64,000 bases of DNA from a virus: IMG/VR virus record IMGVR_UViG_3300020469_003050, positions 1-64,000 of that record; one strand, written 5' to 3'. The notes below the pieces were generated by a model. That model did not search any database. It saw only the letters and a list, made by a program, of their open reading frames with translations, and had not been told where the DNA came from. The translations under genes and the position numbers were made by a program. How positions within the stretch are numbered: position 1 is the stretch's first letter; every line of letters begins with the position of its first letter. Positions 17,966 to 56,065 of the stretch are shown piece by piece.

Positions 17966-17977
17966 AGGAACACAGAT

Positions 17978-32208: not shown

Positions 32209-32748
32209 ATGTCTGGAATAAAACGAATATATGGTCTTGAAGAAAAGAACTACTACAAGTTCTTTGGTATTGATGAAAAGCAAGGGATAAGTGTACGTAG
32301 TCTTACGACACATTATAAGAAGATTCTAACAATCCTTAAGAAGGATACATCATTTACAGGACAAGACAGATTAGCATTTGCCAACAGGGCTTTCGAAACC
32401 TTGGCAGATCCTATTGCCCGTGCAAGATATTTACTTGAATTAAAAGGTCATGAAAATGATTTCAGAGACGGTGTTAGACCTGATGATATGGTTTTCATTA
32501 ATCAACTAAAACATCAACTTGAGGAACAAACTACAAGCGAAGATGTTATCTCTTTTATTGAAGAATTAAAAGACCAAACTCAGTTTATTAAAGACCAAAT
32601 AGAACAAAGCATTGATACATATCAGAATTACAAAACTGCTAGTGGATTATTGAATAGATTTTACGAAATATCAGAAATTCACCAAGAAGCAAAATCGAAA
32701 CAAGAAAAGATTGAGGAGGGGATAACCTATGTTGTATTTAACAGATAA
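32209..32748 (+). CDS. hscB: HscB-like Fe-S co-chaperone with degenerate HPD motif
   Basis: 179 aa, collinear with HscB: NYYKFFGI..., ETLADPIARARYLLELKG (compare QTLRHPLMRAEYLLSLHG), then a helical C-domain. The HPD position reads KKD. Confidence 0.65.
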   Translation: MSGIKRIYGLEEKNYYKFFGIDEKQGISVRSLTTHYKKILTILKKDTSFTGQDRLAFANRAFETLADPIARARYLLELKGHENDFRDGVRPDDMVFINQLKHQLEEQTTSEDVISFIEELKDQTQFIKDQIEQSIDTYQNYKTASGLLNRFYEISEIHQEAKSKQEKIEEGITYVVFNR

Positions 32749-33058
32749 TTCCACAACAAGAATTAAAAAATGGTTATCTCAGAACCCAGGTAAAAAAGCA
32801 AGATTAAGTATAAAAACAGCCGGGTGTACTGGTTTCATGTATGAAGTTCTACTTGACGAAAAATTCAATATAGAAGATGACTTTGCTATTAAATACGATG
32901 ACTTTGACATTCTCGTAGAACATAAATATTTTCACACTATTGACGGAGCAACATTGGATTATGTTACTGATACTAAGAGTATGAGTTCGCATTTTGAACT
33001 TGTAAGTAATCCAAATGAAAAAGCACGTTGTGGATGTGGAGAGAGTTTTACGGTATGA
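32729..33058 (+). CDS. iscA: IscA/HesB-family Fe-S carrier
   Basis: 109 aa. The three conserved Cys are present: GCTGFMY and C-terminal CGCGESFTV. Confidence 0.85.
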   Translation: MLYLTDNSTTRIKKWLSQNPGKKARLSIKTAGCTGFMYEVLLDEKFNIEDDFAIKYDDFDILVEHKYFHTIDGATLDYVTDTKSMSSHFELVSNPNEKARCGCGESFTV

Positions 33059-33777
33059 ATGAGAGATTAAACATAGAAAAACACGCAATAAATCAAGCAC
33101 GTAGATGCCAAAGGAACTGGGACCTTTCTAAAGAAGTAGATGAAGAACACATAAATCATTGGATTTATCTAGCAACTACGGCACCATCAAAACAAGATGA
33201 AAGTTTTTTTGATTTATATGTAGTTACTGATAGAACAAAATTAGATTATCTCTACAAGGAACATTCATGGGGATTTACAATGTTGCCTGGTATGAAAGAT
33301 TGGGTCGGAAGAAACCCACAAATGGGAGCAAACTGTTTGTTTGTTTTCAATAGAAAGATGAATGAAGAAGAAATTCGTAATAACGAAAAAGATGGAAGTG
33401 TAAGAGATCCAAATGCTTCAAGTAGATGGGACAATGCATTTACATCGATTGGTATAGCAAGTGGCATAGTAGCCTTTAGTGCAAGTATGATGGGTTATGT
33501 TACTGGTTATGGTAAGAATTTTGGTTACATTGAAGAACCAAAACACAGTCAAGATGTATGGGGTGAAGTTCTCGGCATTAAGAAAGAAGATAACAACTTG
33601 ACATATAGTTTGGGAATTGGTTACCCAGATGAAAGCCTTCAATGGTATCAAAGTAAAGATAATAACGAATATCTAACAGGAGGGCCTGTTAACTATTCAA
33701 TCCAGTCTACTGATACTGATTTAAAATATTCAACATATTCTAAATTAGCCAGAGACATAAAGGTGTGGCGAGTATGA
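33055..33777 (+). CDS. nitroreductase-family flavoprotein (tentative)
   Basis: ORF track gives 33028..33777. ATG 33055 forms an ATGA overlap. The N-terminal RRCQRNWDLSKEVDEEHINHWIYLATTAPSKQDESFFDLYVVTD fits the nitroreductase signature (R.S.R.f......l..i...a..APS..n.q......v). Confidence 0.55.
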   Translation: MNERLNIEKHAINQARRCQRNWDLSKEVDEEHINHWIYLATTAPSKQDESFFDLYVVTDRTKLDYLYKEHSWGFTMLPGMKDWVGRNPQMGANCLFVFNRKMNEEEIRNNEKDGSVRDPNASSRWDNAFTSIGIASGIVAFSASMMGYVTGYGKNFGYIEEPKHSQDVWGEVLGIKKEDNNLTYSLGIGYPDESLQWYQSKDNNEYLTGGPVNYSIQSTDTDLKYSTYSKLARDIKVWRV

Positions 33778-34097
33778 TTTTTACAGAAAAAGCGGCTACG
33801 AGAGTAGAAGAAATTATAAAAGAACAGGGTGAATCTTCTGGTACGGCATTAAGAGTGTTCGTAGAAGGAGGAGGTTGCCATGGGTTCAGTTACGGTTTTG
33901 GTTTTGAAAAAGACCTTAAAGATGATGATAGTATCTATGAAACTAATGGCGTGAAGTTAGTAGTAGATAGTATGTCAATCATGTATCTAGCAGATGCAAA
34001 AGTAGATTATATCTCTAGCCTACAAGGCGACAGATTTGTAATCGATAACCCAGGAGCACAAACTACATGTGGATGTGGTTCTAGCTTCTCAGTATAA
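33774..34097 (+). CDS. IscA/ErpA-type A-type Fe-S carrier
   Basis: MIFTEKAATRVEEII..., LRVFVEGGGCHGFSYGF, C-terminal CGCGSSFSV. ATG 33774 forms an ATGA overlap (track start 33765 is GTG). Confidence 0.9.
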   Translation: MIFTEKAATRVEEIIKEQGESSGTALRVFVEGGGCHGFSYGFGFEKDLKDDDSIYETNGVKLVVDSMSIMYLADAKVDYISSLQGDRFVIDNPGAQTTCGCGSSFSV

Positions 34098-34123: not shown

Positions 34124-34363
34124 ATGGAAGTAAAAGATAAAGTGTATGAAATAACTGCACGAAAAATGAAACGGCAGGTCTCTGACTTGAATGATGATAC
34201 CAATCTAAAGAAAGATTTGGGTGCTGATAGTATCGATACAGTTGAAATTGTATTTGAAGTAGAAGAATTCTATAAAATTGCTATTCCAGATGAATACGCA
34301 GAAACTATCAATACTATTGGTGATGCAGTCAAGTGTGTAGAGGATATGCTAAAAAATCAATAG
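34124..34363 (+). CDS. acyl carrier protein
   Basis: 79 aa. Phosphopantetheine-attachment motif LGADSIDTVEIVFEVEEFY (compare AcpP LGADSLDTVELVMALEEEF). Confidence 0.85.
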   Translation: MEVKDKVYEITARKMKRQVSDLNDDTNLKKDLGADSIDTVEIVFEVEEFYKIAIPDEYAETINTIGDAVKCVEDMLKNQ

Positions 34364-36799: not shown

Positions 36800-36874
36800 G
36801 CTGATGTGGCTCAACGGTAGAGCAACTGATTTGTAATCAGTAGGTTGGAGGTTCGATTCCTTTCATCAGCACCA
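36800..36874 (+). tRNA. trnT: tRNA-Thr (anticodon UGU)
   Basis: Acceptor GCTGATG/CATCAGC. D arm GCTC-AACGGTA-GAGC. Anticodon arm ACTGA-TTTGTAA-TCAGT. T loop TTCGATT. Encoded ACCA. Confidence 0.9.
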
Positions 36875-36892
36875 CAACAAGAAAGGTAAATA

Positions 36893-37111
36893 ATGAAGCC
36901 AGGCGAAGCAATAATCCTAGCCGCACGTAAACAAGCGGAAGGTGAAATAGCGGTTCATCTAGCAAACATACAAGTCTATCAAACTATGCCAGCAGGTATT
37001 GGTGAACATTCAGATGTTACCGAGGCAGTGATTGAAGAACTTAATAAACTAGCGGCCGCTTATGACAGATTAGAAATGATTGAAAAATATTTCACAACTA
37101 AATCTGAATAA
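36893..37111 (+). CDS. hypothetical protein between two tRNA genes
   Basis: 72-aa ORF. RBS AAAGG upstream. Confidence 0.55.
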   Translation: MKPGEAIILAARKQAEGEIAVHLANIQVYQTMPAGIGEHSDVTEAVIEELNKLAAAYDRLEMIEKYFTTKSE

Positions 37112-37120
37112 CAAAATTTA

Positions 37121-37204
37121 GCCCATGTGGTGAAATTGGTAGACACGCAGGTTTTAGGTACCTGTTCTTACGGAGTGGGGGTTCAAGTCCCTCCATGGGC
37201 ACCA
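37121..37204 (+). tRNA. trnL: tRNA-Leu (anticodon UAG), long variable arm
   Basis: Acceptor GCCCATG/CATGGGC. Anticodon arm CAGGT-TTTAGGT-ACCTG. Long variable arm. T arm GGGGG-TTCAAGT-CCCTC. Encoded ACCA. Confidence 0.9.
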
Positions 37205-37238: not shown

Positions 37239-37703
37239 ATGAAACTTAATACACTTACCACCGGATTAATATATCCTGCATTATATTTTGCTATGTTTAT
37301 AGCATTGTTTGTAGTGCCTGCATTCGCAGATGATATGACTATCGAAATGTTGAACAAACGTGACGATGGTGCTAAGATGGTTTACAGTGAGGATATCGCA
37401 AACATTGACGTAGGCGATACAATTACTTGGGTACCAACATCAAAAGGTCATAATGTACAATTCATTGCTGGACCAGATGGTTGGGATATTCCAAAGAAAT
37501 CAAAAAACAACAAAGAAGTTGCAATCACTTTTGACGTACCAGGCGTATATCTATATCAGTGTACACCACATGCAACAATGGGTATGATTGCTATTGTAAT
37601 GGTAGCAGAAGGTGGCGAAGTCCCACTAAATGATATCAGCAAAGCAAAGGTCAGAGGCAAGAGCAAAAAGAAACTAAAAGAATTGCTTGATGAACTATCT
37701 TAA
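37239..37703 (+). CDS. pseudoazurin-like type-1 blue copper protein
   Basis: 154 aa. Signal peptide ...FVVPAFA-DD. Cupredoxin ligand pattern: GHNV (His) and YQCTPHATMGMIAIVMV (Cys-x2-His-x4-Met, pseudoazurin spacing). Confidence 0.8.
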   Translation: MKLNTLTTGLIYPALYFAMFIALFVVPAFADDMTIEMLNKRDDGAKMVYSEDIANIDVGDTITWVPTSKGHNVQFIAGPDGWDIPKKSKNNKEVAITFDVPGVYLYQCTPHATMGMIAIVMVAEGGEVPLNDISKAKVRGKSKKKLKELLDELS

Positions 37704-38103
37704 ACGCATAAGTGAAAAACTACCGGAGTTCTGTTTGTCTCATTGGCTATACAGAATTCCCTTAGCCATTGTGTTTATTCAACAAGGTCTAAGTAAGTTT
37801 CCAGTAACATTGGAAGGGGCTGAGTCTTTTGACTTGCCCTACATTGTTTGGTGGGTTGTTGCTTATGGGGAACTAGGCGCAGGTCTAGGTCTACTCGTAG
37901 GCGGAGCATTCAACACAGATTATATACGTTGGATAGGAGACCTAATTACACGTTTCTCAGGTATTACAATCTGTTGTATAATGACAGGTGTTATCTGGGT
38001 AGGCGAACCTGAAAGTCTACTAGACGTAATTCTATATGATAACTTTCACGTATTTCTATGGGTAGGTGGGTTATTCTTTGCACTAAGAGGTAATAGAGGC
38101 TAA
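37690..38103 (+). CDS. DoxX-like integral membrane protein (tentative)
   Basis: 137 aa, four hydrophobic segments. The N-terminal LYRIPLAIVFIQQGLSKF resembles the DoxX signature. Confidence 0.45.
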   Translation: MNYLKRISEKLPEFCLSHWLYRIPLAIVFIQQGLSKFPVTLEGAESFDLPYIVWWVVAYGELGAGLGLLVGGAFNTDYIRWIGDLITRFSGITICCIMTGVIWVGEPESLLDVILYDNFHVFLWVGGLFFALRGNRG

Positions 38104-38112
38104 ATAGAATGT

Positions 38113-38403
38113 ATGGCGAGAATTGGACGTAAACGGGTCCTGCAATGGATCAAAGAAGACTACAACACTAACCCGATAAGATTTACTACAGAGGTTAGTG
38201 GGATGACCTTAAACTTAATGGCCGCAATAATATTAATGTGGTACAGCCCAAATCCTCCAATGTTTTGGGCTTACATTTTCTTCATACTAGCTAGTGGATT
38301 ATTAATGGTGGCGGCTTTTAGTCGTAAATCATTTGGATTTACTTTTATGTATATCGTTTATTTGATGATAGATGGTATAGGTTTTCTAAAAACTCTAATT
38401 TGA
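38113..38403 (+). CDS. small membrane protein
   Basis: 96 aa, three hydrophobic segments. Last gene of the + strand block; its stop abuts the stop of a minus-strand ORF. Confidence 0.6.
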   Translation: MARIGRKRVLQWIKEDYNTNPIRFTTEVSGMTLNLMAAIILMWYSPNPPMFWAYIFFILASGLLMVAAFSRKSFGFTFMYIVYLMIDGIGFLKTLI

Positions 38404-38574
38404 TTATTTTTTCTTAGCGACTGAACCCTTGTTCCGTCCTTTTTTTATAACGTAGTCTTGTGTGCCATTTGCACCGGTCTCTACTTCTTTTCTTAAAAAT
38501 CTTGCAAGTAATTTTTCTTTTGTATCACGTAATACTTTAGCAGTGTATCCTGTAAGTGATTTAGTATCTCTCAT
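38404..38574 (-). CDS. small basic protein (56 aa), not in the ORF track
   Basis: ATG at 38574 (minus) preceded by AAGGA. Reads MRDTKSLTGYTAKVLRDTKEKLLARFLRKEVETGANGTQDYVIKKGRNKGSVAKKK, stop at 38404-38406. It fills the gap at the 3' end of the minus operon. Confidence 0.45.
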   Translation of the reverse strand: MRDTKSLTGYTAKVLRDTKEKLLARFLRKEVETGANGTQDYVIKKGRNKGSVAKKK

Positions 38575-38586
38575 AAATTCCTTGTA

Positions 38587-38856
38587 TTAATCTTCATCGT
38601 ATGTGGTAACACCTGAACGATTAGCACCACTAGTATCTCTTTCATTAATATCAGACATTTCTTGTCTAAACGCAACACAGTCTGCCTCTGTTGCAAAAGA
38701 GATTTTAGTGTACTCTCCGCCTAGACTTGATAAAATATCTCTTTCTAGTATTTTACCTTCATCTACATAACGGTCATAAATTACCTGTGCTTCATCTGAG
38801 CATTGGTTACCGTTCTCGTTAGTACCTTCATTTTTAAATCTTAGTATATGTGGCAT
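38587..38856 (-). CDS. hypothetical acidic protein
   Basis: 89-aa ORF. RBS AGGGAG upstream. Confidence 0.6.
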   Translation of the reverse strand: MPHILRFKNEGTNENGNQCSDEAQVIYDRYVDEGKILERDILSSLGGEYTKISFATEADCVAFRQEMSDINERDTSGANRSGVTTYDED

Positions 38857-38890
38857 CTTTATCTCCCTAATATACTACTATTTATCTATT

Positions 38891-39310
38891 TTATGCTACA
38901 GTGATAGCAAAACGCCAATCTGTAATATTTCTTACTGTATGATGTGTGTTTACTGACAGTTTATACCATTCTTCTTTAGGTAAAATGACAGTATCTATTG
39001 GATTTTGTGAAGTTTTTTCTTCAAACCAGCATGTCTCAACATTATCTCCTCCTGGAGATATGATATAGTTTATTGCAAAATCTCTGCCTCTATCGATATG
39101 CACTGGTATATCTTCTGTTAATGTTTGATATCTAAACTTAGTACAATCGGGGAATAAGGGTTGTAGATATTCTCTTAACTCAGATTGACATTCATGTATT
39201 GTATAATTCTTACTTTTACCACCAAATATATTTTCAAGTTTTAATACTTCATACATTGGTAATATTAAATTATCTGGTACCTTTGGTAAGTCTAATTTGG
39301 TGTAGTTCAT
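38891..39310 (-). CDS. cupin / 2OG-Fe(II)-oxygenase-like protein (tentative)
   Basis: 139 aa. HxD...H pattern: IPVHIDRGRDFAINY ... NTHHTVRNI. Overlaps the upstream gene by 4 nt. Confidence 0.4.
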   Translation of the reverse strand: MNYTKLDLPKVPDNLILPMYEVLKLENIFGGKSKNYTIHECQSELREYLQPLFPDCTKFRYQTLTEDIPVHIDRGRDFAINYIISPGGDNVETCWFEEKTSQNPIDTVILPKEEWYKLSVNTHHTVRNITDWRFAITVA

Positions 39311-39987
39311 AATAGTAACTCTTTCAACGTTGGTATACTATCAGTGCTTAATGAAATAAAAAATTGATATACGTTATCACCGATAGAACTTGCATCATGT
39401 ATTACATGTGTATCTGTTATATATAATCTACCTGCTTCTATATCTTTTTCTCTTACTAAATCATATGATAGATTACCCTCTGCCACTTCTCTTGGACTGG
39501 CTGTTTTTCTATCTTTATCAAATTGAAATATCATATTATCTGGATCATTGGTTCCCCATAGTCTAATAATATCACTAGGTATTTTAGTATCTGTATGTGG
39601 TTTAAAATGTCCAGTAGTATGCCACTTTAATATAGCACTTCTATACATAAAAGGTTTAATTGGTTCAAGAGGATCAAAGCATGATTCTGATAACATTGGA
39701 GTAGGTGAAGTACATTTCGGGTCACGTACTTTATCTTCTTCTTTCTTTCCTTCGTTCCATTGATTTAATGGATAACATATAGGTTCTGGATTGTTGAACA
39801 TATCTCCGTTTAAATTAACGAGAGGAGCTCCATATCTTGGATATTCAGTGTGTTTAGTACCCCAACGTCTAAATGCATATCTGTATTCATGCATTTGTTC
39901 TTCAAACAAATTTACATCAATTTTCATATCAAGAGGTTGTAATACAGTTGGATGAAACTTATTATATTCTTCTAGTCCTAATGACAT
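39307..39987 (-). CDS. cupin / Asp-Asn-beta-hydroxylase-like 2OG oxygenase (tentative)
   Basis: 226 aa. HFKPHTDTK ... LYITDTHVIHDASS fits the H-x-D ... H facial triad spacing of the family. Confidence 0.4.
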   Translation of the reverse strand: MSLGLEEYNKFHPTVLQPLDMKIDVNLFEEQMHEYRYAFRRWGTKHTEYPRYGAPLVNLNGDMFNNPEPICYPLNQWNEGKKEEDKVRDPKCTSPTPMLSESCFDPLEPIKPFMYRSAILKWHTTGHFKPHTDTKIPSDIIRLWGTNDPDNMIFQFDKDRKTASPREVAEGNLSYDLVREKDIEAGRLYITDTHVIHDASSIGDNVYQFFISLSTDSIPTLKELLL

Positions 39988-40002
39988 TTCGTGTCCTTTA
40001 CA

Positions 40003-40590
40003 TTAATAGTAACCGAAAGCCCAATACTTCTCTTTACACCACCAACATTCTTTACATGGTCTAGGCAGACTTTCACTTTCACAACTGATAGTTAAGTTTG
40101 CTAGGTCTTGTAAATTATGTTCGTTATATAATTCTGCTACCGTTTGTTTAGTACTATTTATAAACGGACGATAATGATATACCCCATGTGATGAGATTAC
40201 TCTAATTTCTCGCTTTTTGTCTCTACTTTCATCACGTCCTTCTGTCATTAATTCAGAGGGATTAAGTGTCATACCAGTTAAGATACCTGATGCTTGATGT
40301 TTATTAATAAGTCTATCTCTAGTTTTGGTTCTGTTGTTTCGTGCTTCATTTCTGTCTTTATAGTATCCAATATAATGTTCTTCAATTCTGTTTGGAAATC
40401 TTGCATGTAACCAATTCGTAATTGCTATTACATTAAATAGATTATAGTAATTTAAAGATTGATGACATACACTACTTAAGACCAGCTTTGTATTTGGTAA
40501 CTCTTTTAGAACTAGATAAGAGAGCAACGCACTATCAAGTCCGCCACTCAACATCATTACATATGTTCCAGAGTTAGGTATGTCTTTCAT
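40003..40590 (-). CDS. PP-loop ATP pyrophosphatase, QueC-like
   Basis: 195 aa. N-terminal PP-loop VMMLSGGLDSALLSY. C-terminal Cys cluster SCESESLPRPCKECWWCKEK, similar to the QueC zinc site. Confidence 0.7.
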   Translation of the reverse strand: MKDIPNSGTYVMMLSGGLDSALLSYLVLKELPNTKLVLSSVCHQSLNYYNLFNVIAITNWLHARFPNRIEEHYIGYYKDRNEARNNRTKTRDRLINKHQASGILTGMTLNPSELMTEGRDESRDKKREIRVISSHGVYHYRPFINSTKQTVAELYNEHNLQDLANLTISCESESLPRPCKECWWCKEKYWAFGYY

Positions 40591-41291
40591 TATTTTATAC
40601 CAGTAAAACTACGATGTACTGTGTTATCCAGAACTTTTTTATAATCTTTGTTCTTAGTTAAATCTTTCAATTTAGAATCTTGTGAAATTAATTCTTCTTC
40701 ACTTCTAAATTCAGATGGTAGACCAAGTTTTTCAAACACTTCATATATTGATAGTTGTTGTAAATCAAAGAAGTTTTCTATATTTGTATTTTCTATATTA
40801 ATTTGTTTAATCATACGTGCATCATTTTCGTACCAATCATAATGTGGATACGATATATCCCAACCACCTACTTTGTTTCTCCACCAATCAAAACAAAAAT
40901 CAGATGGCATATACACAGCCATAATCTTTGATTTTGGAAATAAGTCTTGTAGTAAAGGAAGATGATATGCAAACCAATGACTTTTTATTATCTTAACACC
41001 ATAGTTAAAATCTTTATATGGCTTTTTGAATTCTTTTATAATTTCATCTTTTGTCATATCTTGTAGATTATCAAATCTTTGACCTTGATTATGATATGGA
41101 CCCCAATAAGCACCTCGATGCCAACCATACTGTTTTGTTTTACCATTAGGTGTAACATAGTCTCTGGCGTATTCTAGTTCGCTTCTTTCATCACTAATAT
41201 TAATATTTGGATTAGTACTAATAGCACGTAAGGTGCCACTCCATCTACTTCCAGGAGCACCCGTTGCCAATATTAAATCTTGTCCGTCCAT
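40590..41291 (-). CDS. P-loop / sulfotransferase-fold protein, paralog A
   Basis: 233 aa. ATGAPGSRWS near the N-terminus. IIKSHWFAYHLPLLQDLFPKSKIMAVYMPSDFCFDWW fits the sulfotransferase pattern (sH....l...fP.aKiI...R.P.d...S). Confidence 0.5.
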   Translation of the reverse strand: MDGQDLILATGAPGSRWSGTLRAISTNPNINISDERSELEYARDYVTPNGKTKQYGWHRGAYWGPYHNQGQRFDNLQDMTKDEIIKEFKKPYKDFNYGVKIIKSHWFAYHLPLLQDLFPKSKIMAVYMPSDFCFDWWRNKVGGWDISYPHYDWYENDARMIKQINIENTNIENFFDLQQLSIYEVFEKLGLPSEFRSEEELISQDSKLKDLTKNKDYKKVLDNTVHRSFTGIK

Positions 41292-42364
41292 AATTTTTCT
41301 CTGCTATTGTGTGATAGAACTTTTTTAAGTGCTAGTTTAGAACTTATACCATCGAATTGTAAATTGCAGTGGTCGTTCCCATAGCATATTGTATCTTCTG
41401 GTAATCTCCATAAGAAGTCTATTGCATTTTGATAACTCTGTTTACTTGTCTTTAGTAAGTTACTTGGTATTCTTTTTAATGCTCCGTCCCACCATATTAT
41501 TCCTTGTCCATTAGTATCAATAGAACTAATATCTTTTATATTCATTCTATGCCACTTATGATTTAAACTTTTGTATTTGTTCCAGTGTTCTTGCCATTTG
41601 TCTCCAAAATGATTCTGTACATCTTCCCATACGACTTTCCATTTTCTATCTTCACTAGTAAATTTCTTTCTATTCCAAAGTGACATACTAGGAAATTTAT
41701 TGTTAAGATGTTCTATCCATGATTCAAAATCATTTCCATCCCAATTTTCAATAGTATACTTGTGAACATGAAGACTTATCTTTGAGATATCGACATGATG
41801 TATTACAGACTTCTCATTAAACCCATGATGGTCTAATATACAGTTAATGAAAAATCCACTACTTACTGTTATTGCCCAATCAACTGGCTTAGTTACATTT
41901 CCGTAATTTGGTATTTCATTGTGCATTAGATATGTAATATTACTATCATCAATTAAACTTGTTAAAATGATATCATGGCTATTATAAAATTCTTCTGCAC
42001 TATCTGTGTTTAACTTGTGAATAAACTTTGCTTTTACATGGGTTGTACCTTCGCCCAATGGTTTATGAAACCAAACATCATCACTAAAATGTATATACTC
42101 ATGCTTTGATGCTTCTATCATTTCTTTATAATGATGTTCATATGCACCCCACAAGAATATAGTTCCAGCATTAACAACCATAACAATATCATAGTCATGT
42201 AAGTAAGTGTAACTGTCCATTACATAATAATCAACTTGATTTTCTGTTGGTAATCTATTACATTCTTGATAATCTAAACTTAATTGTGTGTAATTTAGAG
42301 CAATCTTATCGTGGTGTTCATTTCCATTTTTAAGTACAACGATTGCATATTTTAGTTTTGTCAT
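41273..42364 (-). CDS. hypothetical enzyme-sized protein
   Basis: 363-aa ORF inside the operon, His/Trp-rich. No motif I can name. Confidence 0.6.
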   Translation of the reverse strand: MTKLKYAIVVLKNGNEHHDKIALNYTQLSLDYQECNRLPTENQVDYYVMDSYTYLHDYDIVMVVNAGTIFLWGAYEHHYKEMIEASKHEYIHFSDDVWFHKPLGEGTTHVKAKFIHKLNTDSAEEFYNSHDIILTSLIDDSNITYLMHNEIPNYGNVTKPVDWAITVSSGFFINCILDHHGFNEKSVIHHVDISKISLHVHKYTIENWDGNDFESWIEHLNNKFPSMSLWNRKKFTSEDRKWKVVWEDVQNHFGDKWQEHWNKYKSLNHKWHRMNIKDISSIDTNGQGIIWWDGALKRIPSNLLKTSKQSYQNAIDFLWRLPEDTICYGNDHCNLQFDGISSKLALKKVLSHNSREKLWTDKI

Positions 42365-43077
42365 TATAATCTTTCATCTATCCTATCAAAGTTATAATAA
42401 GCAATATGAGTGTCTAACGTAACGTCCCTACTAGGATCATTCTTTTCGAAGAAATAACCTTCTATACTTTTTATAAATCTATTCTCACTATCAGTTATAT
42501 CCCAATAGTCTTTCCAATGTTTACTTGTTGCAGTATGTACTGTTAAGTTTCTGTTAAATATCCATTGTCTAGCATCTTTAGTTTCTTCTTTAATATATTC
42601 ACGTGCAGTTTCTTCATCTTTGTAATGATTATGATACTTTGGATAAGTTATATCGAAGCCCCCTGCTCCGAACCAACCTCTGTAACAACTTTCAATTGGT
42701 CTGAATACAATCATTATTTTACTTTTAGGAAAAGTCTCTGCAATGAAATCTAAATTGTTAGATATCATATGTGATTTTACAATTCTATATTCAGTTGGCT
42801 TTTCTTCTTTCCAGGCTTTGTCTATTTCATTTAAGATTTCTTGTTTTGTAAACTTATTAATCTCATGCCAGCCTTCACCTAGTTCCATACCTGTACCGAA
42901 ATAACTTCCTAAGTGTTGTGCCTTATTAAACTTAGTTGGGTGAGTATATTCTCTATCTGCATTTCTATCAGTAGTATTGATGTTAATCTTTTTTGTCATA
43001 GACAATACATTACTGACTGCACTCCATTTACTTCCAGGAGCACCTGTGAAAAATATCAATTTACTTTCATCTACCAT
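42364..43077 (-). CDS. P-loop / sulfotransferase-fold protein, paralog B
   Basis: 237 aa. FTGAPGSKWS; IVKSHMISNNLDFIAETFPKSKIMIVFRPIESCYRGWF; GGFDITYPKY. Clearly homologous to 40590..41291. Confidence 0.5.
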   Translation of the reverse strand: MVDESKLIFFTGAPGSKWSAVSNVLSMTKKININTTDRNADREYTHPTKFNKAQHLGSYFGTGMELGEGWHEINKFTKQEILNEIDKAWKEEKPTEYRIVKSHMISNNLDFIAETFPKSKIMIVFRPIESCYRGWFGAGGFDITYPKYHNHYKDEETAREYIKEETKDARQWIFNRNLTVHTATSKHWKDYWDITDSENRFIKSIEGYFFEKNDPSRDVTLDTHIAYYNFDRIDERL

Positions 43078-43864
43078 CTAAAAATCTCTTTATTCTTCGC
43101 CATTTACTATATCTATTTGGCGAAATAGTTAATACGTTATCATGGCTATAAGATTCTCTATCCCAACTTCTTTCTGCAATAGGAGAGTATACATGTTCCC
43201 AATATTCATCATCGTATTTGTCCATGTACTTTGTTTTATATTTATCCCACGCCCATATATCTCTTACAGTAAAATCAGAACCTAACTCTTTTGATATAGT
43301 TTGCAGTTTTTTACCGTATACAGTATTCTCTCCTCCTACCCATTTCATTTTAACATGACCTGGGAATAGTGCAGTAGTTTCTGTATATCTTGAGGCGATA
43401 GTATAATCATCACCTATTAGATTTATTATCTTTGCTTTAGGAAATCTTTTATTTAATTTAATCGGGTGTTCATGTGTACAGAAAACTAATCTATTCTTCT
43501 TCATTAATTCTCGACCACCCATCTTTTCAAAACGTGGATAGAAGAATCTATTGTAATAATATTCTTCATCAGGTATAAAATCTTTTACGTAATCATGTAG
43601 TGGAGGTAAAGCACCTTTTGGTACTAATCTATCATAGTGATATTTACTTGCATATCTTTGTCTGATATCTGTATGTTTGAAATGAATGTTCCAAGGATTA
43701 ATTCCATTATCTTTATGACTATACCAATGTATATCAGGTAGACAAGATATTACACGACCTACTCTGTGTCCTTTGTTTCCTTGTTCAAATGATATGAATA
43801 TTAATCTACTACCGTCTAACACTCTTTCTTCCCATATAATAATAGTGACCATCTTCTTTTGCAA
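43067..43864 (-). CDS. divergent third member of the sulfotransferase-fold family
   Basis: 265 aa. LIFISFEQGNKGHRVG at the P-loop position. THEHPIKLNKRFPKAKIINLIGD aligns with the KSH...FPKSKI block of the two paralogs. Confidence 0.45.
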   Translation of the reverse strand: MQKKMVTIIIWEERVLDGSRLIFISFEQGNKGHRVGRVISCLPDIHWYSHKDNGINPWNIHFKHTDIRQRYASKYHYDRLVPKGALPPLHDYVKDFIPDEEYYYNRFFYPRFEKMGGRELMKKNRLVFCTHEHPIKLNKRFPKAKIINLIGDDYTIASRYTETTALFPGHVKMKWVGGENTVYGKKLQTISKELGSDFTVRDIWAWDKYKTKYMDKYDDEYWEHVYSPIAERSWDRESYSHDNVLTISPNRYSKWRRIKRFLDGR

Positions 43865-44519
43865 CTATGTCGCCTGTAGCAAACCAATCGTCATAAACAC
43901 ATATGTCACCTTTTACATATAGTTCACCATCGACAATCTTTGTATCACAATGAGTTTCACTACCCATTATTGTTTCTGTTGTCTGTACTTTTATACCAGG
44001 CACAAATGTTCTATTGATTGCAACTGGACCAACTTCTGTCATACCCCAATTAACAATAAAGATTGCACCTCTATCAATAAAGTTTTGTATAATGCCACTT
44101 TGTACTCTGTCACTGCCACACATAATGATTTTATCTTCTAAGTTTAGACTATCGAAACTCTTTGTCTTCATTATCGCTCTTGCCATATCAGGTGTTAAGT
44201 GACTGTGCGTAAAATCTTTTATCTTTCTTACCCAAGAAAATGCATTAAACTTTTCTACTTCAATTTCTGCATTGACTTCATAACCTGGTAATGTTTGTGC
44301 CAGTAATCCACCTGCATGTTTTAATGTACATACGGTTAATATCTTACTGTCCTTATCTATGCCTTGCACTTCTCTAGCAATAGCATTCGCATATCTTAAC
44401 TTTTCTGGTGGCTGAAAGATATTCTTAGGAGTACCTGTTGAACCACTACTTTGTAGTATACAGCCCTCCATAATCATATCATCAAATTCGTTTTTAGTTA
44501 TACTGTCTTCTAATTTCAT
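43809..44519 (-). CDS. minimal adenylate-forming (ANL superfamily) enzyme core
   Basis: 236 aa. Motifs in order: A3 SSGSTGTPKNI, A5 NWGMTEVGP, A7/A8 WFATGDIVAKEDGHYYYMGRKS. It lacks the usual N-terminal region of about 150 aa and the C-terminal subdomain. Confidence 0.75.
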   Translation of the reverse strand: MKLEDSITKNEFDDMIMEGCILQSSGSTGTPKNIFQPPEKLRYANAIAREVQGIDKDSKILTVCTLKHAGGLLAQTLPGYEVNAEIEVEKFNAFSWVRKIKDFTHSHLTPDMARAIMKTKSFDSLNLEDKIIMCGSDRVQSGIIQNFIDRGAIFIVNWGMTEVGPVAINRTFVPGIKVQTTETIMGSETHCDTKIVDGELYVKGDICVYDDWFATGDIVAKEDGHYYYMGRKSVRR

Positions 44520-45042
44520 TATATTTTTCTACGTTTAATATCCATGTGTTTTGATTAACACTAAAAATTTCACTTACACCTAAGTTCTTAACTAGGTCTA
44601 TCTTTTCTAAATGATAAAATGTTTTATCAATTCTATTCATCTTTCCACTTGCATCATGTTCAGTATTTGTAGTGATATAAATGAATAGGTTATCTAAATC
44701 TGTTTCTTTACTTGATGCATAATCTATTTGATATGGTAGCTGACTATGAAAGCAATAACTTTGCATGTGATGTCTATTCAACCCTATCTTTTTACTTTCA
44801 GTCTGTACACCTCTAAACAATGCTCTCCACCCATTAGCCCATGGATGTATTCCGCTGACACTAACCATACGTTCATCAACGTAGGTTGCATGCCACATAC
44901 CACCTTGTTCTAAACACCAATCAAACTTCATATCTTCCAATGTGCTATTATTGTTGAAGCCTTTTGCTTCACATGTTTTTAGAAAGTTTTCAAGTTCGGG
45001 TGTTACTATATGTAGTTCCTTAGTAATAATCATGCTTGACAA
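44494..45042 (-). CDS. hypothetical protein, first gene of the minus-strand operon
   Basis: 182-aa ORF. No motif I can name; acyltransferase-like size only. Confidence 0.6.
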   Translation of the reverse strand: MSSMIITKELHIVTPELENFLKTCEAKGFNNNSTLEDMKFDWCLEQGGMWHATYVDERMVSVSGIHPWANGWRALFRGVQTESKKIGLNRHHMQSYCFHSQLPYQIDYASSKETDLDNLFIYITTNTEHDASGKMNRIDKTFYHLEKIDLVKNLGVSEIFSVNQNTWILNVEKYNEIRRQYN

Positions 45043-45064
45043 TATATTTATATACTGATATTAT
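45036..45064 (+). promoter_or_regulatory. sigma70-type promoter with extended -10, driving tRNA-Gly/Ala
   Basis: TTGACA (45036-45041, overlapping the ATG of the minus-strand gene), 17 nt, TATTAT (45059-45064) preceded by TGa. Confidence 0.6.
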
Positions 45065-45088
45065 ACATGATAAATAATACGAAGTCAA
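45060..45088 (-). promoter_or_regulatory. sigma70-type promoter for the minus-strand operon
   Basis: On the minus strand: TTGACT (45088-45083), 17 nt, TATAAT (45065-45060). The -10 hexamers of the two divergent promoters share the palindromic TATTATA. Confidence 0.5.
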
Positions 45089-45095
45089 TAGAAAA

Positions 45096-45170
45096 GCGGG
45101 CGTAACTCAGTGGTAGAGTCCCTCGTTGCCAACGAGGTTGTCGTGAGTTCGAATCTCATCGCCCGCTCCA
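45096..45170 (+). tRNA. trnG: tRNA-Gly (anticodon GCC)
   Basis: Acceptor GCGGGCG/CGCCCGC. D arm ACTC-AGTGGTA-GAGT. Anticodon arm CCTCG-TTGCCAA-CGAGG. T loop TTCGAAT. Encoded TCCA. Confidence 0.9.
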
Positions 45171-45177
45171 TTTCTAA

Positions 45178-45253
45178 GGGGCATTAGCTCAGTTGGGAGA
45201 GCGCCTGATTTGCATTCAGGAGGTCGTGGGTTCGACTCCCTCATGCTCCACCA
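45178..45253 (+). tRNA. trnA: tRNA-Ala (anticodon UGC)
   Basis: Acceptor GGGGCAT/ATGCTCC with the G3:U70 Ala identity pair. Anticodon arm CCTGA-TTTGCAT-TCAGG. T loop TTCGACT. Encoded ACCA. Confidence 0.9.
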
Positions 45254-45273
45254 TAACATAAAAGGAGAGGAAT

Positions 45274-45468
45274 ATGGTATGGATACTCATATGGTTACAA
45301 TTAGCAGGAAATCAAAACATGGACTATTATCACATAGACACGTTTGATACATTAGATGCCTGTGTAGAAGAATTATCAACGGCCTCAGTCTTAGTTACTC
45401 ACAAAAATGCAACAATAGACTGTATTCCCGTAAAAACAACAAGAGAAGTAGAAATTCAAGTCAAATAA
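45274..45468 (+). CDS. small hypothetical protein between tRNA genes
   Basis: 64 aa. Strong RBS AAAGGAGAGG. Confidence 0.6.
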   Translation: MVWILIWLQLAGNQNMDYYHIDTFDTLDACVEELSTASVLVTHKNATIDCIPVKTTREVEIQVK

Positions 45469-45471
45469 GTA

Positions 45472-45501
45472 TTGACTTTTACTACTAAAGTATGATATAA
45501 T
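45472..45501 (+). promoter_or_regulatory. sigma70-type promoter with consensus extended -10
   Basis: TTGACT (45472-45477), 18 nt, TGaTATAAT (45493-45501). tRNA-Asp starts 27 nt downstream. Confidence 0.7.
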
Positions 45502-45527
45502 TTACTCTTAATAATCATTAGATTATT

Positions 45528-45604
45528 GGGGGTGTAGTTCAGTTGGTTAGAACGCTTGCCTGTCACGCAAGAGGCCGAGGGTTCGAGTCCCTTCACTCCC
45601 GCCA
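45528..45604 (+). tRNA. trnD: tRNA-Asp (anticodon GUC)
   Basis: Acceptor GGGGGTG/CACTCCC. D arm with GTTCAGTTGGTTAGAAC. Anticodon arm CTTGC-CTGTCAC-GCAAG. T arm GAGGG-TTCGAGT-CCCTT. Encoded GCCA. Confidence 0.9.
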
Positions 45605-45637: not shown

Positions 45638-47125
45638 ATGAACATAACATTAATGCTACTATTCATTGTAGCCGTAGGATTTGTAGCCTACAAGTCTAAA
45701 GGGGATAATTACTTTCTGACAACATCAGATAGCAATATGAACCTTGGGCTTTCTTATGGAGCAACGTTAATTTCAACGTCTGCTATCATAGGCTTTGGAG
45801 GTCTAGCTGGTTGGATTGGATTTTCTATTCCACTCACAATGATTATTCCATTTGTGGGTCTTATATATCTTGCGACTGTTTATATAGGTCCAAAGGTATA
45901 CAAAGCTAACAAGAAAATTAAAGCCAAAACGTATATTGAAATGATTGGTAAACATTATAACACACCAATGATTTCAAAATTACTAGCACTCATTACTGTG
46001 GGATTAATTCCATTCTATTGTGTTGCAGTTCTTATAGGTGTCGGTAAATTTATTACTGCATTTACAGGAATTGACTTTACTTTAGCAGTAGTTGGTTTTA
46101 GTATTCTAGTTTTTGGAACTATCGCATACGGTGGAATGAGTTCTGTACTTAAAAATGATATGGTACAAGGTGTCATTGTCATTGCAGGGTCACTTGTCGT
46201 ATTAGCAATCACAGTATTCGTGCATATGCAGGCTCCCGGTTTTTGGGATAACTTATCAGATGCATGGTTACTAGTACCAGAAGATGATGGATTGCGTAAA
46301 CTTAGTTTTACAGGATTTACTAGCTGGCCAGAGTTTTGGTCTAGAGGCTGGTTAATGATTACTACATTATTAGTATTCACTATTCCAGTAGGACTTATCA
46401 CTTTGCCTCAACTACAAACACGTTGGATGATGGCTAAAGATGAAAAGAGTTTTAAAACTATTGCAAATTGGGGTGTTATTATCCCAGGTCTAGCAATCAT
46501 AACGTTTATGTTAGCGGCAATCTCTGCCAACTCATATACGTTTGCTACAGAAGGTATGACAGTTGCACAAGCGGCTGGAGGAACTGCTAGTATTGTTCCT
46601 TATTGGATTAAGACAGGGTTCCCAGCATGGGTTTCTAGTGCTTTATTCTTAACTATTTTGGCGGCGGCGTTTACAACTCTTAATAGTTTGATGCATTTGT
46701 TATCAACAACAATAGCCAATGATATTATATCTACAAAGACACCAAGTCTTAAAGTAGCATATGGTTCGATGGTTGCAGTTATTTTACTAGCACTTTGGAT
46801 GACAATTCAATTCAATGGGCAAATGGCAATTATTGCACGTGCTACTGCATTATACTTTGGTATCATTGGTGCAAGTATGTTACCACTAGTCATTGGAATG
46901 GCAAGAGGACTATCTAATGGTCGTCATGCACTTGCAAGTTTTATTGGTGGTGCAGTAACAAGTATCGGTTGGGTACTATTCGTACACTTCAAAGAATCAA
47001 AGTTGTTCACTGGTATCACATATGATATTGGTGTGTATAACTTTGTTGAACCAATCGTTCCTGGTTTAATTGTATCTGGTGTAATCTTTATTGCACTAAC
47101 ATATATTAGACCAACAATCAAATAA
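45638..47125 (+). CDS. sodium:solute symporter (SSF) family-like polytopic transporter
   Basis: 495 aa, about 13 hydrophobic segments. The N-terminal region YFLTTSDSNMNLGLSYGATLISTSAIIGFGGLAGWIG resembles the SSF signature. RBS AAGGAGG. Confidence 0.7.
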   Translation: MNITLMLLFIVAVGFVAYKSKGDNYFLTTSDSNMNLGLSYGATLISTSAIIGFGGLAGWIGFSIPLTMIIPFVGLIYLATVYIGPKVYKANKKIKAKTYIEMIGKHYNTPMISKLLALITVGLIPFYCVAVLIGVGKFITAFTGIDFTLAVVGFSILVFGTIAYGGMSSVLKNDMVQGVIVIAGSLVVLAITVFVHMQAPGFWDNLSDAWLLVPEDDGLRKLSFTGFTSWPEFWSRGWLMITTLLVFTIPVGLITLPQLQTRWMMAKDEKSFKTIANWGVIIPGLAIITFMLAAISANSYTFATEGMTVAQAAGGTASIVPYWIKTGFPAWVSSALFLTILAAAFTTLNSLMHLLSTTIANDIISTKTPSLKVAYGSMVAVILLALWMTIQFNGQMAIIARATALYFGIIGASMLPLVIGMARGLSNGRHALASFIGGAVTSIGWVLFVHFKESKLFTGITYDIGVYNFVEPIVPGLIVSGVIFIALTYIRPTIK

Positions 47126-47197: not shown

Positions 47198-47578
47198 ATG
47201 GCATACAGTAAAAAAGTAATGGACCATTATAACAATCCACGTAATGTAGGTCGTTTCGATCCCAGTGTAGATAAAGTTGGAACTGGGATGGTAGGAGCGC
47301 CGGCATGTGGTGACGTAATGCGTTTACAGATACAAGTTGAAGACGGAGTTATAAAAGATGCTAAATTTAAAACTTATGGTTGCGGAAGTGCAATAGCAAG
47401 TTCAAGTTTAGTAACTGAAATGGTTAAGGGTAAGACATTGAAAGAGGCTCAAGAAATTAAAAACATGGACATAGTAGATGAGTTATCTTTACCTCCAGTA
47501 AAAATACATTGCAGTGTTTTAGCCGAAGATGCGATTAAATCCGCAATAGAAGATTTTAAAAGAAAGTACCACAGATAA
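47198..47578 (+). CDS. iscU: IscU Fe-S cluster scaffold
   Basis: 126 aa, collinear with bacterial IscU: VMDHYNNPRNVG, GAPACGDVMRLQI, KTYGCGSAIASSS, LPPVKIHCSVLAEDAIK. All three ligand Cys and the LPPVK HscA-binding motif are present. Confidence 0.95.
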   Translation: MAYSKKVMDHYNNPRNVGRFDPSVDKVGTGMVGAPACGDVMRLQIQVEDGVIKDAKFKTYGCGSAIASSSLVTEMVKGKTLKEAQEIKNMDIVDELSLPPVKIHCSVLAEDAIKSAIEDFKRKYHR

Positions 47579-55400: not shown

Positions 55401-56065
55401 AGACATCTACACCAGATGTATATGTTGATATGGACGGTGTGTTAGTTGATTTCTTCAATGAATGGGCTAGACTAGTTGGCGTTAAGTCATACAGAGATAT
55501 ACCAAAGAAAGATATAGGCAAAGCATTAAAGAAGATTGTTAGTACTCCAAACTTCTGGGAAGACTTGCCAACATTAGCAGGTTACAAAGATTTGCTACAA
55601 ACAATTAAGGCTGTAAAAGGCAAATACAAAATATTGAGTTCCCCTCTAGCAAATGATCCTAACGTAGATCCTGGCAAAAGAGAGTGGGTGAGAAAACATT
55701 TAAACTTCTTTAAACCAGAGCAAGTTATCATTGACCATAATAAATCAAAATATGCAAAGAAACAAGACGGTAGTCCGAACTTGTTAATTGATGATTTTGG
55801 TAAGAATGTCGATGCATGGCAATCAGCTGGTGGTATCGCAATTAAACATCACACAACAACTACTGCAAATACAGTACAAGCAATTAAGAAAGTATTCAGT
55901 ATAAAAGATGTTAAAGAAGCGGCTGGCGTAGGTAGAGTTATACCTGGCATAAATACCACAGTTGACGTAGGTCCCAACGAAATTACTAAACAAGCTAAAA
56001 AGTTTGGTAATGATGTAGATAAAGATGGGAAACCTAAGAAGCTACTGCGTACAAAGAAAAAATGA
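52415..56065 (+). CDS. four-domain fusion: ParB-like nuclease domain / RelA-SpoT-type HD (p)ppGpp-hydrolase-like domain / class II CCA-adding tRNA nucleotidyltransferase / HAD 5'(3')-deoxyribonucleotidase-like domain
   Basis: 1216 aa. (1) aa about 50-135: LKPVQSEF...DDWIIDGHHRWLAAL. (2) aa about 145-300: AHKDHQRKYTGDPYYVHLDEV...AALLHDTVEDT...FGPKIAKLVVELTD. (3) aa about 470-835: IVGGAVRDIALGKEPKDIDFAT...GIEHGT...AKRRDLTYNAMS...EDYLRILRYFRF. (4) aa about 1000-1170: VYVDMDGVLVDFFNEW...LLIDDF. Confidence 0.85.
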   Translation: MRLHEFKIEKPKPEDTMGITRDKMPQVKSTDYDAYKSYLKKNGVTLRPQVVHAKDLKPVQSEFSDQGVERQLNKNRENDGQNPKPLLASSDDWIIDGHHRWLAALNSNRNVSILRANVDVHELLSLTLKFPSVYFKDIYTEEEESMDVIQKAEKFAQEAHKDHQRKYTGDPYYVHLDEVRNIVKQAGGTVEQQAAALLHDTVEDTSVTPVDVTREFGPKIAKLVVELTDVSKPEDGNRKTRKAIDRDKLAGVSAEAQTVKYADLISNGRDIGKNDPKFAKVYHAEKADLLRVMTKGNQNLRKQAIALLPDELKSVVGEAFGRANFNKQLKRKGIDVDKMHSDNVKDAEASKKRSKDAEDDLKAFRKKHGIKEETPFGLLSRKMSHVINKKAYMNMAQMMHKILTRKYKETNGKLRHSLAYYAQMLAMQTNNKINYRELEKEYLDMFGNAMFENSVKESLNEEALNVKSIITPAIRKLDKVFKKNKHEVRIVGGAVRDIALGKEPKDIDFATDATPDEMIAMLDKEGIRHIPTGIEHGTITAVIDGEDFEITTLRADTNTDGRHADVEFVRSWEEDAKRRDLTYNAMSMDMDGTVHDYNGGMDDLQDKVSRFVGDPEERIKEDYLRILRYFRFQSKLDSPKWDDTTLNAIKDNADGMTGLSVERIWQEMGKLLMGSSAKEALEWMNKTGVSSKIGLEGINPAKLGEPTGPIIALARMLDSSGIARDWKMSNYDREMFDFLIKHKGENINSKQAQDMIINGASQDHLLAWANMHGKNDVYDAVHGFEQPDFPINGKDLLARGYVAGPNLGKMIADLKDEWMKSNYKLSKEQLLSKVPVRENALFEAVARFMTGHGITYKGKKYDEMNVEVVGVDNEKRQYQVMIFDPEELRGVNVMMSARFMHRGPWVKTKIPDYMGAIEKGLDKDKTDEWIVPVGQAIAHGARMAAPHVAKFLRNDPAPKIAGGVTSTGAAYNWAKNKYDSFKNKKSTKPTTTTEAETSTPDVYVDMDGVLVDFFNEWARLVGVKSYRDIPKKDIGKALKKIVSTPNFWEDLPTLAGYKDLLQTIKAVKGKYKILSSPLANDPNVDPGKREWVRKHLNFFKPEQVIIDHNKSKYAKKQDGSPNLLIDDFGKNVDAWQSAGGIAIKHHTTTTANTVQAIKKVFSIKDVKEAAGVGRVIPGINTTVDVGPNEITKQAKKFGNDVDKDGKPKKLLRTKKK

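Follow-up and report, generated by a model that had tools for sequence, protein, structure and literature searches.

The auxiliary metabolic genes of phages are usually single enzymes taken from known host pathways. An operon of eleven genes (g1 to g11 in order of transcription, all on the minus strand, 45042 to 38404) lies in a 64,000-nucleotide stretch of DNA (IMG/VR virus record IMGVR_UViG_3300020469_003050, positions 1 to 64,000; hereafter the window) derived from a marine phage that is very large and uncultured. The nearest published concept, which is not homologous to it, is the sugar-/amino-acid-modification cluster of the jumbo cyanophages S-SSM6a and P-SSM2, a set of 8-12 tailoring enzymes (Iyer, Anantharaman, Krishnan, Burroughs & Aravind 2021, PMC7824862, section 3.4.10). 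That cluster includes methyltransferases and 2-oxoglutarate (2OG)/cupin hydroxylases, and elsewhere a halogenase, a carbamoyltransferase and HAD proteins; it is predicted to make a secondary metabolite or to decorate a polysaccharide (PMC7824862). Some loci related to the window operon likewise have halogenase, carbamoyltransferase and HAD neighbours, but the operon differs in possessing a reduced ANL enzyme, a GNAT-like protein, three sulfotransferase-fold proteins, a PP-loop ATPase and an association with transporters, and a tblastn search with its eleven products gave no cyanophage match among cultured phages. Over all 50,697 phage records searched by tblastn, the only matches were sulfotransferase-like ones in one uncultured marine virus and homologs of g11 in pelagiphages, in agreement with the first-pass annotation of this DNA, which had described one compact unit of modification-type enzymes matching no known phage pathway. 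A near-identity DNA search of the window against cultured phages also found no match, so that neither search placed the operon's cassette in any cultured phage, and no description of it was found in the literature on its components or on marine jumbo phages and megaphages.

Comparison of sequences indicates that g1 to g7 constitute a conserved enzyme cassette, which hundreds of large ocean phages carry, and we put forward, tentatively and at rather less than even confidence, that the operon carries out soluble, cytoplasmic, multi-enzyme tailoring of an imported small carboxylate. Close relatives of the window (93-99% identity) retain the whole operon and its neighbours, and all eleven open reading frames (ORFs) are conserved as proteins in relatives. 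When the genes of ten loci, representing eight or nine lineages, were clustered, g1, g2, g3 and g4/g6 appeared in all ten, with g5 and g7 jointly present in six and jointly absent in four. The order g1, small DUF6356 membrane protein, g2, g3, g4, g5, PP-loop protein, g6 is found on contigs of 70-472 kb, and the order of g1 to g7 is kept between lineages with only 35-66% protein identity. Two metagenomic proteins (P0185 and P0186) have a g3-like N-terminus fused to a g1-like C-terminus, an argument for joint action of g1, g2 and g3. When gene-neighbourhood conservation was checked, the g1-g7 cassette proved to be shared across lineages, usually beside a nutrient-uptake transporter. Three sub-modules are evident: a transporter with the sulfotransferase-like g4/g6, a methyltransferase and sometimes an oxygenase, which bacteria share with the phages; the triad g1-g2-g3, found so far on phage contigs only; and the pair g5 and g7.

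The second gene product is g2 (236 aa, 43809..44519), a truncated ANL (AMP-binding) adenylating core comprising motifs A3-A8 only. It matches PF00501 (E 1.1e-13, 51.2 bits against a cut-off of 29.9) over model positions 167-378 of 384, aligns with residues 166-355 of MenE (3ipl), and has in common with other ANL enzymes (acyl-CoA synthetases, the A domains of nonribosomal peptide synthetases, luciferases and MenE) the motifs A3 (SSGSTGTPK), A5 (GMTE), A7 (TGD) and the start of A8 (GR), in agreement with the minimal adenylating core recognised earlier. Unlike those enzymes, g2 is of ~230 rather than ~500 aa and is always paired with a GNAT-like and a sulfotransferase-like protein. It starts just before A3 and ends 7 residues past the GR of A8; the first ~166 PF00501 model positions (the N-terminal subdomain) are missing, as is all of the C-terminal domain. 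It thereby departs from the two-domain ANL architecture of a ~400-aa N-terminal and a ~110-aa C-terminal domain with the A10 lysine; no match to AMP-binding_C was recorded in any cassette locus. The mini-ANL family comprises at least 424 clusters at 90% identity, and the 120 homologs listed (56-97% identical to g2) are 185-246 aa long, nearly all of them 223-236. With the listed homologs similarly short, the small size of g2 is not a truncation artefact. A conserved half-size ANL protein with obligate GNAT-like and sulfotransferase-like partners, recurrently coupled to an importer, is unusual.

The first gene, g1 (44494..45033; 179 aa from ATG 45033, the ORF reaching TTG 45042), for which 99 representative homologs were found, is judged from its family profile to be a divergent GNAT-fold protein. 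The profile (51 members) matches the GNAT structure 3t9y (E 0.0024) over its N-terminal 77 positions only, and PF00583 is matched by 3 of the 51 members (best 2.1e-5); g1 itself has no Pfam match, and the family consensus contains no canonical R/Q-x-x-G-x-G/A acyl-CoA loop. In one close relative (L002) the TTG frame is broken by a 1-nt indel lying between TTG 45042 and ATG 45033, and gene callers also give 179 aa; the real start is therefore ATG 45033, and the protein first listed as a 182-aa unknown is both shorter and no longer without a predicted fold. The idea that g1 supplies the missing N-terminal subdomain of the ANL enzyme was rejected, since the family profile fits GNAT and not ANL.

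Two clear paralogs with a predicted sulfotransferase fold are g4 (237 aa, 42364..43077) and g6 (233 aa, 40590..41291), which are 34% identical (E 9e-27), fall into the same cluster in the ten-locus gene clustering, and both display a KSH...FPKSKI block and a GAPGS(K/R)WS loop (GAPGSKWS in g4, GAPGSRWS in g6). The g4 family keeps GAPGSKWS, an invariant His103 (of KSH) and a near-invariant Arg126. Against the Protein Data Bank (PDB), the AlphaFold2 (AF2) model of g4 (pLDDT 96.8) was closest to the tyrosylprotein sulfotransferases TPST1/2, Cpz8, SgdX2 and Stf0, at a weak level (E 0.016, TM 0.36), with shikimate and dephospho-CoA kinases next in the list; in BFVD it matched one uncharacterised protein of an uncultured phage, auto-named 'Sulfotransferase family' (E 6e-20, TM 0.8). 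PF13469 (Sulfotransfer_3) is matched by 34 of 113 g4 family members at E<0.01 (best 4.8e-6); for g3 and g6 themselves Pfam gave no sulfotransferase match, and sequence and profile searches of the PDB with g4, g5, g8 and g9 returned nothing useful. In its modelled, P-loop-like overall fold g4 appears to resemble sulfotransferases of the Sulfotransfer_3, TPST and Stf0 type, which depend on 3'-phosphoadenosine 5'-phosphosulfate (PAPS); a conserved His (KSH) occupies the catalytic-base position after strand 3, and the FPKSKI...R block has a conserved Arg. Canonical phosphosulfate-binding (PSB) loops of SULT and TPST enzymes read, for example, PKSGTTW or GVPRSGTTL; the operon proteins differ in having GAPGS(K/R)WS, or GxxGHxxxR in g3, and in occurring as three paralogs in one operon. 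The sulfotransferase-like family numbers at least 125 clusters in ocean metagenomes.

The third member, g3 (43067..43852; ~251-261 aa, its uncertain start being probably ATG 43852 or GTG 43825), is a divergent protein of presumed sulfotransferase fold, distantly paralogous to g4/g6, with only a weak direct match to g4 by pairwise BLASTP. Its P-loop takes the variant form G-x-x-G-H-x-x-x-R, the histidine of CTH is conserved, and a motif alignment of its family gives the invariants H19, R23, H62, R65, H117 and R145. The earlier description of three sulfotransferase-like P-loop paralogs with a KSH...FPKSKI block is borne out in g4 and g6; g3 is a more distant paralog with a loop of its own. In the near-identical relatives L003 and L002 the identities are 93-99% for g4-g8, 82-94% for g1/g2 and 73-82% for g9-g11, but g3 is only 63% identical to its L003 counterpart, where the flanking genes reach 93-99%; this local divergence points to allelic replacement or diversifying selection at one sulfotransferase-like gene.

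The pair that is present or absent together consists of g5 and g7. The first-pass annotation gave g5 (363 aa, 41273..42364) as an unknown, and it has no Pfam match; its AF2 model (pLDDT 88.8) shows an N-terminal alpha/beta domain followed by a C-terminal domain that, as modelled, is a class-I S-adenosylmethionine (SAM)-methyltransferase fold nearest to small-molecule N-methyltransferases. Foldseek matched it to NNMT, PNMT and AviRa (prob 0.97-0.99), best to NNMT/PNMT (E 5e-4, prob 0.99), and the family has the invariants T-V-S-S-G-F (motif-I-like) and H-x-D-x-S (motif-II-like). The other product, g7 (195 aa, 40003..40590), is a PP-loop ATPase with a QueC-like C-terminal four-Cys cluster, as originally recognised, on the strength of SGGLDS at residues 15-20, the C-terminal C-x9-C-x2-C-x2-C and a match of residues 137-192 to PF06508 QueC (25.9 bits, cut-off 22); it also matches phrog_1550 (QueC-like, E 3.8e-10), PF01171 (E 2.6e-5) and, weakly, TilS_N, NadE and LarE. 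The SGGxDS PP-loop, the C-terminal Cys cluster and the similar small size are shared with QueC. Unlike QueC and the phage 7-deazaguanine clusters, however, g7 falls far below the equivalog threshold (TIGR00364, 22.9 vs 150.3 bits), its homologs also score as Asn_synthase (as in L022), and no FolE, QueD, QueE or DpdA partner was found among the scanned genes of the window, which represents ~64 kb of a ~340-kb genome. Adenylation and amidation, at a carboxyl or a carbonyl group, are the reactions predicted for g7.

The last four genes are less widely shared: a single further lineage, L023, has g8 and g9, and neither g10 nor g11 recurs in this way. Both g8 (226 aa, 39307..39987, conserved PHTDTK...IHDA; homologs in L003, 99%, and L023, 47%) and g9 (139 aa, 38891..39310, conserved H-x-D-R-G-R...H-T-V; homolog inside the L023 cassette, 59% identity) are accessory proteins in which an HxD...H pattern is conserved in three homologs each. 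Neither has even a faint Pfam match or a PDB match, and pairwise and profile comparisons revealed no relation of one to the other or to a neighbouring Asp/Arg hydroxylase (Asp_Arg_Hydrox); of their description as cupin/2OG-oxygenase-like, the HxD...H pattern alone remains. Another HxD...H family of 220-331 aa (YWHLDAF...IPHGTAN), absent from the window, adjoins sulfotransferase-like genes on phage and bacterial contigs (L008 10676-11470 and 14752-15720; L010 10663-11658; L014 10676-11482; L023 15120-15782; L016 1568-2182) and is perhaps the genuine oxygenase that partners the module. The acidic small protein g10 (89 aa, pI 4.4, 38587..38856) was seen in the window lineage only, with 73% identity in L002/L003. 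The basic small protein g11 (56 aa, pI 10.3, 38404..38574) has homologs 47-63% identical in 18 Pelagibacter phage records, mostly HTVC/EXVC isolates, and in one uncultured Mediterranean phage, and probably lies outside the cassette chemistry.

The cassette is repeatedly accompanied by an importer. A TctA permease and a protein of ~350 aa lie inside or beside it in six of the ten loci, TctA being placed within the operon itself in L010/L011 and next to it in L008, L013, L014, L023 and L024. The ~350-aa partner has a signal peptide, and a profile of eight members gave 12 weak PDB matches of which four were to Bug/TctC, aligned on an N-terminal VVP..GG.T, with no match to Pfam TctC. This combination is like TctABC in joining a TctA permease to a signal-peptide protein with weak Bug/TctC similarity, and unlike it in that the small DUF6356 proteins are not TctB and the window has a different transporter. 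In SUP05 viruses, tctA had already been reported among the viral genes, with its role unknown (PMC4164917). The window lineage is without TctA, and its place is taken by a sodium:solute symporter (SSF; PF00474, E 9e-19; 45638..47125, plus strand) that is divergent from the operon across three tRNA genes. The adjacency of symporter and operon is kept in L001-L006, L025 and L026, and the symporter, which has no match in cultured phages or the PDB, is a candidate for the importer of the cassette's substrate in this lineage.

Parts of the system also occur in bacteria. A bacterial contig of 50% GC (L020) encodes TctA, the binding protein, a sulfotransferase-like protein, a small methyltransferase and a 2OG-Fe(II) oxygenase, the transporter parts being 55-61% identical to the phage ones; L021 has a set of TctA, binding protein and sulfotransferase-like protein, and sulfotransferase-like genes are paired with methyltransferase genes in Tahibacter aquaticus and in a metagenome-assembled genome (MAG) of Haliscomenobacter. 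No homologs of g1, g2 or g3 were seen on these L020, L021, Tahibacter and Haliscomenobacter contigs. On L020 a YcaO-TfuA pair and a B12-binding radical-SAM gene (17948-19944) are situated within 8 kb of the TctA/sulfotransferase-like module. An Actinomadura context (sulfatase, SARP regulator) was set aside as too uncertain, the choice of ORFs being unreliable in high-GC DNA.

Carboxylates are the ligands of Bug/TctC proteins, and ATP-dependent activation of carboxyl groups is common to ANL and QueC/AsnB-type enzymes. Because of these properties, and because all of the enzymes are soluble (no hydrophobic segment in any of the eleven products, maximum KD19 1.45), tailoring of a carboxylate is the most economical interpretation; stepwise tailoring had been proposed earlier for a small molecule, DNA base, peptide or glycan, and the neighbourhood now favours the first, as an imported carboxylate. 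A phage-encoded transporter, the SSF symporter in the window lineage and a TctA/TctC-like tripartite system in most other lineages, would take up the carboxylate. Its carboxyl group would be adenylated by g2, in complex with g1 and the sulfotransferase-fold g3, and an amide would form when g1 hands the activated acyl moiety to an amine. On a second group, a carboxyl or a carbonyl, g7 would carry out adenylation and amidation, g5 may methylate the molecule, and g4 and g6 may add sulfate (phosphate being less likely) to hydroxyl or amino groups that g8 and g9, if they are oxygenases, would perhaps create. The more specific proposal, a seven-enzyme pathway with its own uptake in which a split amide synthetase (230-aa ANL, GNAT and sulfotransferase-fold protein) leads to a new sulfated/methylated amide, is in our view doubtful.

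Several observations weigh against carboxylate tailoring or parts of it. The substrate and the product both rest on inference, as do all substrates of individual steps, the step order, PAPS as donor and the role of the product. In the window the transporter link is an adjacency in one lineage and involves a different transporter family, and the Bug/TctC matches are individually non-significant (E 0.04-2.4). Adenylation by g2 is an assumption for a protein without the A10 lysine normally needed. With respect to sulfation, g4 scores 19.9 bits against PF13469, below the gathering score of 27, its TM of 0.36 to PDB folds is low, the 5'-PSB loop of g3, g4 and g6 is non-canonical, and no PAPS-synthesis gene was found in the window, ~64 kb of the ~340-kb genome; a possible phage-encoded supply of PAPS is an APS-kinase-family gene (PF01583) in L023 (20588-20684, ~6 kb downstream of the cassette and ~10 kb from the mini-ANL gene), which adjoins a thymidylate synthase gene. 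Peptide or glycan targets would be equally compatible with what lies near the cassette in other loci, namely radical-SAM arrays, a halogenase, sugar-nucleotide genes and small ORFs.

Sulfotransferase-fold enzymes often act on glycans, and the cassette might accordingly decorate a sugar or a cell-surface glycan (lipopolysaccharide or capsule) by sulfation, methylation or acylation, thereby blocking superinfection or altering adsorption. In L010 a GT8 and an NAD-epimerase gene are directly upstream of the cassette, in L024 it is surrounded by HAD, NTP_transferase, carbamoyltransferase and sugar-phosphate isomerase genes, and clusters of this type have been described in jumbo cyanophages (Iyer et al. 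2021, PMC7824862). The window operon, however, includes no glycosyltransferase, flippase, polymerase or nucleotide-sugar gene, its products are all soluble, sugar genes are missing from most cassette loci, and there is no homology to the cultured cyanophage clusters, which makes a glycan target improbable.

AsnB-like PP-loop enzymes make lasso peptides, and a second alternative is modification of a peptide or protein, either to give a product like the ribosomally synthesised and post-translationally modified peptides or by sulfation of tyrosine or hydroxy-amino acids in a phage or host protein. Among solved structures g4 comes closest to tyrosylprotein sulfotransferases, radical-SAM arrays, some with SPASM domains, stand beside the cassette in six of the ten loci, an Asp/Arg hydroxylase adjoins the g8 homolog in L023, YcaO/TfuA is 7 kb from the bacterial module, and the small ORFs g10 and g11 close the operon. 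Yet no conserved precursor-like ORF was found: g10 and g11 are lineage-specific, and g11 is common to podophages without the cassette. There is likewise no leader peptidase or exporter, the associated transporters are of importer type with a periplasmic binding protein, and the TPST matches are weak (E 0.016). We place this alternative next in rank and consider it improbable as well.

Hypermodification of phage DNA or of a nucleotide precursor (7-deazaguanine-like or thymidine-type), as a means of evading host restriction, is suggested by the QueC-like character of g7 and by the great size of the phage, such phages often modifying their DNA. Thymidylate-synthase, DHFR, ThyX and SHMT genes near the cassette in some loci, PTPS/QueD near it in L022, and a very weak fold match to the 5-hydroxymethyldeoxyuridine (5-hmdU) DNA kinase of SP10 (E 0.11) point the same way. 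This is nevertheless very unlikely: the operon and the scanned window genes include no DpdA/TGT, QueD, QueE, FolE, 5-hmdU DNA kinase, hydroxymethylase, aGPT-Pplase or DNA-binding domain, the module of sulfotransferase-like protein, methyltransferase and transporter is found on non-phage bacterial contigs too, the fold of g5 is nearest to small-molecule and not DNA methyltransferases, and g7 is far under the QueC equivalog cut-off. Least probable is a mosaic of co-located accessory genes without a common substrate, for although g8-g11 are lineage-specific, g3 and g9-g11 diverge mosaically and sub-modules occur apart (the sulfotransferase-like, methyltransferase and transporter genes in bacteria, g1-g2-g3 so far in phages only), the order of g1-g7 is kept at 35-66% identity on contigs of up to 472 kb, g3 and g1 can be fused, g5 and g7 are strictly co-present or co-absent, and overlapping start and stop codons suggest translational coupling.

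The physical organisation of the operon was largely as first annotated. All eleven minus-strand ORFs are present from 45042 to 38404, tightly packed or overlapping, with successive junctions from g1 to g11 of -26, -56, -11, -1, -19, -1, +15, -4, +34 and +12 nt, so that neighbouring genes either overlap or are separated by gaps of at most 34 nt; with later g3 starts, -14/-44 stands in place of -56. GC and AT skew change sign across 38-46 kb, which is consistent with a strand switch. The operon has its own sigma-70-type promoter, TTGACT (45088-45083)-N17-TATAAT (45065-45060), read directly from the minus strand (45060..45088) and leaving a 5' untranslated region of only ~27 nt. This is the top-scoring promoter-like site (11/12) within 37.5-46 kb, an 8.5-kb region in which the total of 48 such sites is not above chance (43.3 +/- 6.8 in shuffles), and both hexamers are invariant in L002/L003 (g1 82% and 94.5% identical), with substitutions in the spacer. 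Back-to-back with it and overlapping it is a divergent plus-strand promoter-like site, TTGACA-N17-TATTAT with TG (11/12, 45036-45064), which faces a tRNA-Gly/Ala/Asp cluster. At the other end, the operon abuts the convergent plus-strand gene as had been noted: the stop codon of the latter (TGA) is at 38401-38403 and that of g11 at 38404-38406, and neither inside the operon nor at this convergent junction does the minus strand have a terminator-like site. An Rfam riboswitch search of the window and seven related loci gave no match besides the window tRNAs.

The tRNA genes of the window lie at 45096-45604 and 36800-37204, and the tRNA complement varies among close relatives, with Ser, Asn or Ala swapped. 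A role of the operon in tRNA modification, considered on account of the flanking tRNA genes and the weak TilS-like matches of g7, was rejected, the loci of other lineages having no tRNA genes within 10 kb; the adjacency is incidental, because it is lineage-specific.

With regard to the phage itself, the exact g2 protein of the window is also found on contigs of up to 342,717 bp, from which the genome size of ~340 kb is estimated. The G+C content of the window is ~0.34, and its family-B DNA polymerase is T4-like, 42-48% identical to those of the nearest jumbo phages (Atu_ph07 / Rak2 / GAP32 type). Other window genes encode tail-fibre, head-decoration, ClpB, iron-sulfur (Fe-S) assembly and radical-SAM proteins and six tRNAs. 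The homologs of g11 in Pelagibacter phages hint at a SAR11-like host, whereas a 97%-identical copy of g2 deposited in a MAG labelled Gammaproteobacteria runs counter to this hint.

About 4 kb from the operon, on the plus strand, is a gene for an acyl/peptidyl carrier protein of 79 aa (34124-34363; PF00550, with the phosphopantetheine-attachment motif DLGADSID), which is conserved in the window lineage only and could be an acceptor for the mini-ANL g2; IscA-like, nitroreductase and MotA/ExbB-like genes surround it. Running on the plus strand towards the 3' end of the operon (37239-38403) are genes for three proteins, all of them kept in relatives: a copper protein of plastocyanin/azurin type whose N-terminus is signal-like, and two membrane proteins, DoxX and one of 96 aa. 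Farther away, also on the plus strand, a fusion protein of 1216 aa (52415-56065) joins an HD phosphohydrolase, a CCA-adding/poly(A) polymerase head, an RNA-binding region and a 5'(3')-deoxyribonucleotidase (NT5C). The Fe-S assembly genes of the window (two IscA-like, IscU/NifU_N) are at 32729-34097 and 47198-47578. Such genes, together with a nitroreductase-family gene and radical-SAM genes, are recurrent near the cassette, L015 and L022 having SufE, NifU and FeS_assembly_P. Rows of six to eight paralogous radical-SAM genes occur in L007 (2.6-19.2 kb) and L015 (13.9-20.7 kb), and one radical-SAM protein of ~370 aa is 74-82% identical across five otherwise divergent loci.

The cassette is a multi-enzyme set, abundant in ocean metagenomes, strongly conserved and repeatedly tied to a dedicated importer, and work on it is directly possible because the genes are small and soluble. 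It would define an ANL enzyme cut to half of the usual catalytic domain and would assign a function to a sulfotransferase-fold family common to phages and bacteria. If the split amide synthetase proposal were true, it would represent a new minimal ANL architecture and a new class of virus-made metabolite, which might serve as a nutrient trap, toxin, signal or anti-defence molecule. The product, once found, would show which compounds large marine phages produce or scavenge in the course of infection.

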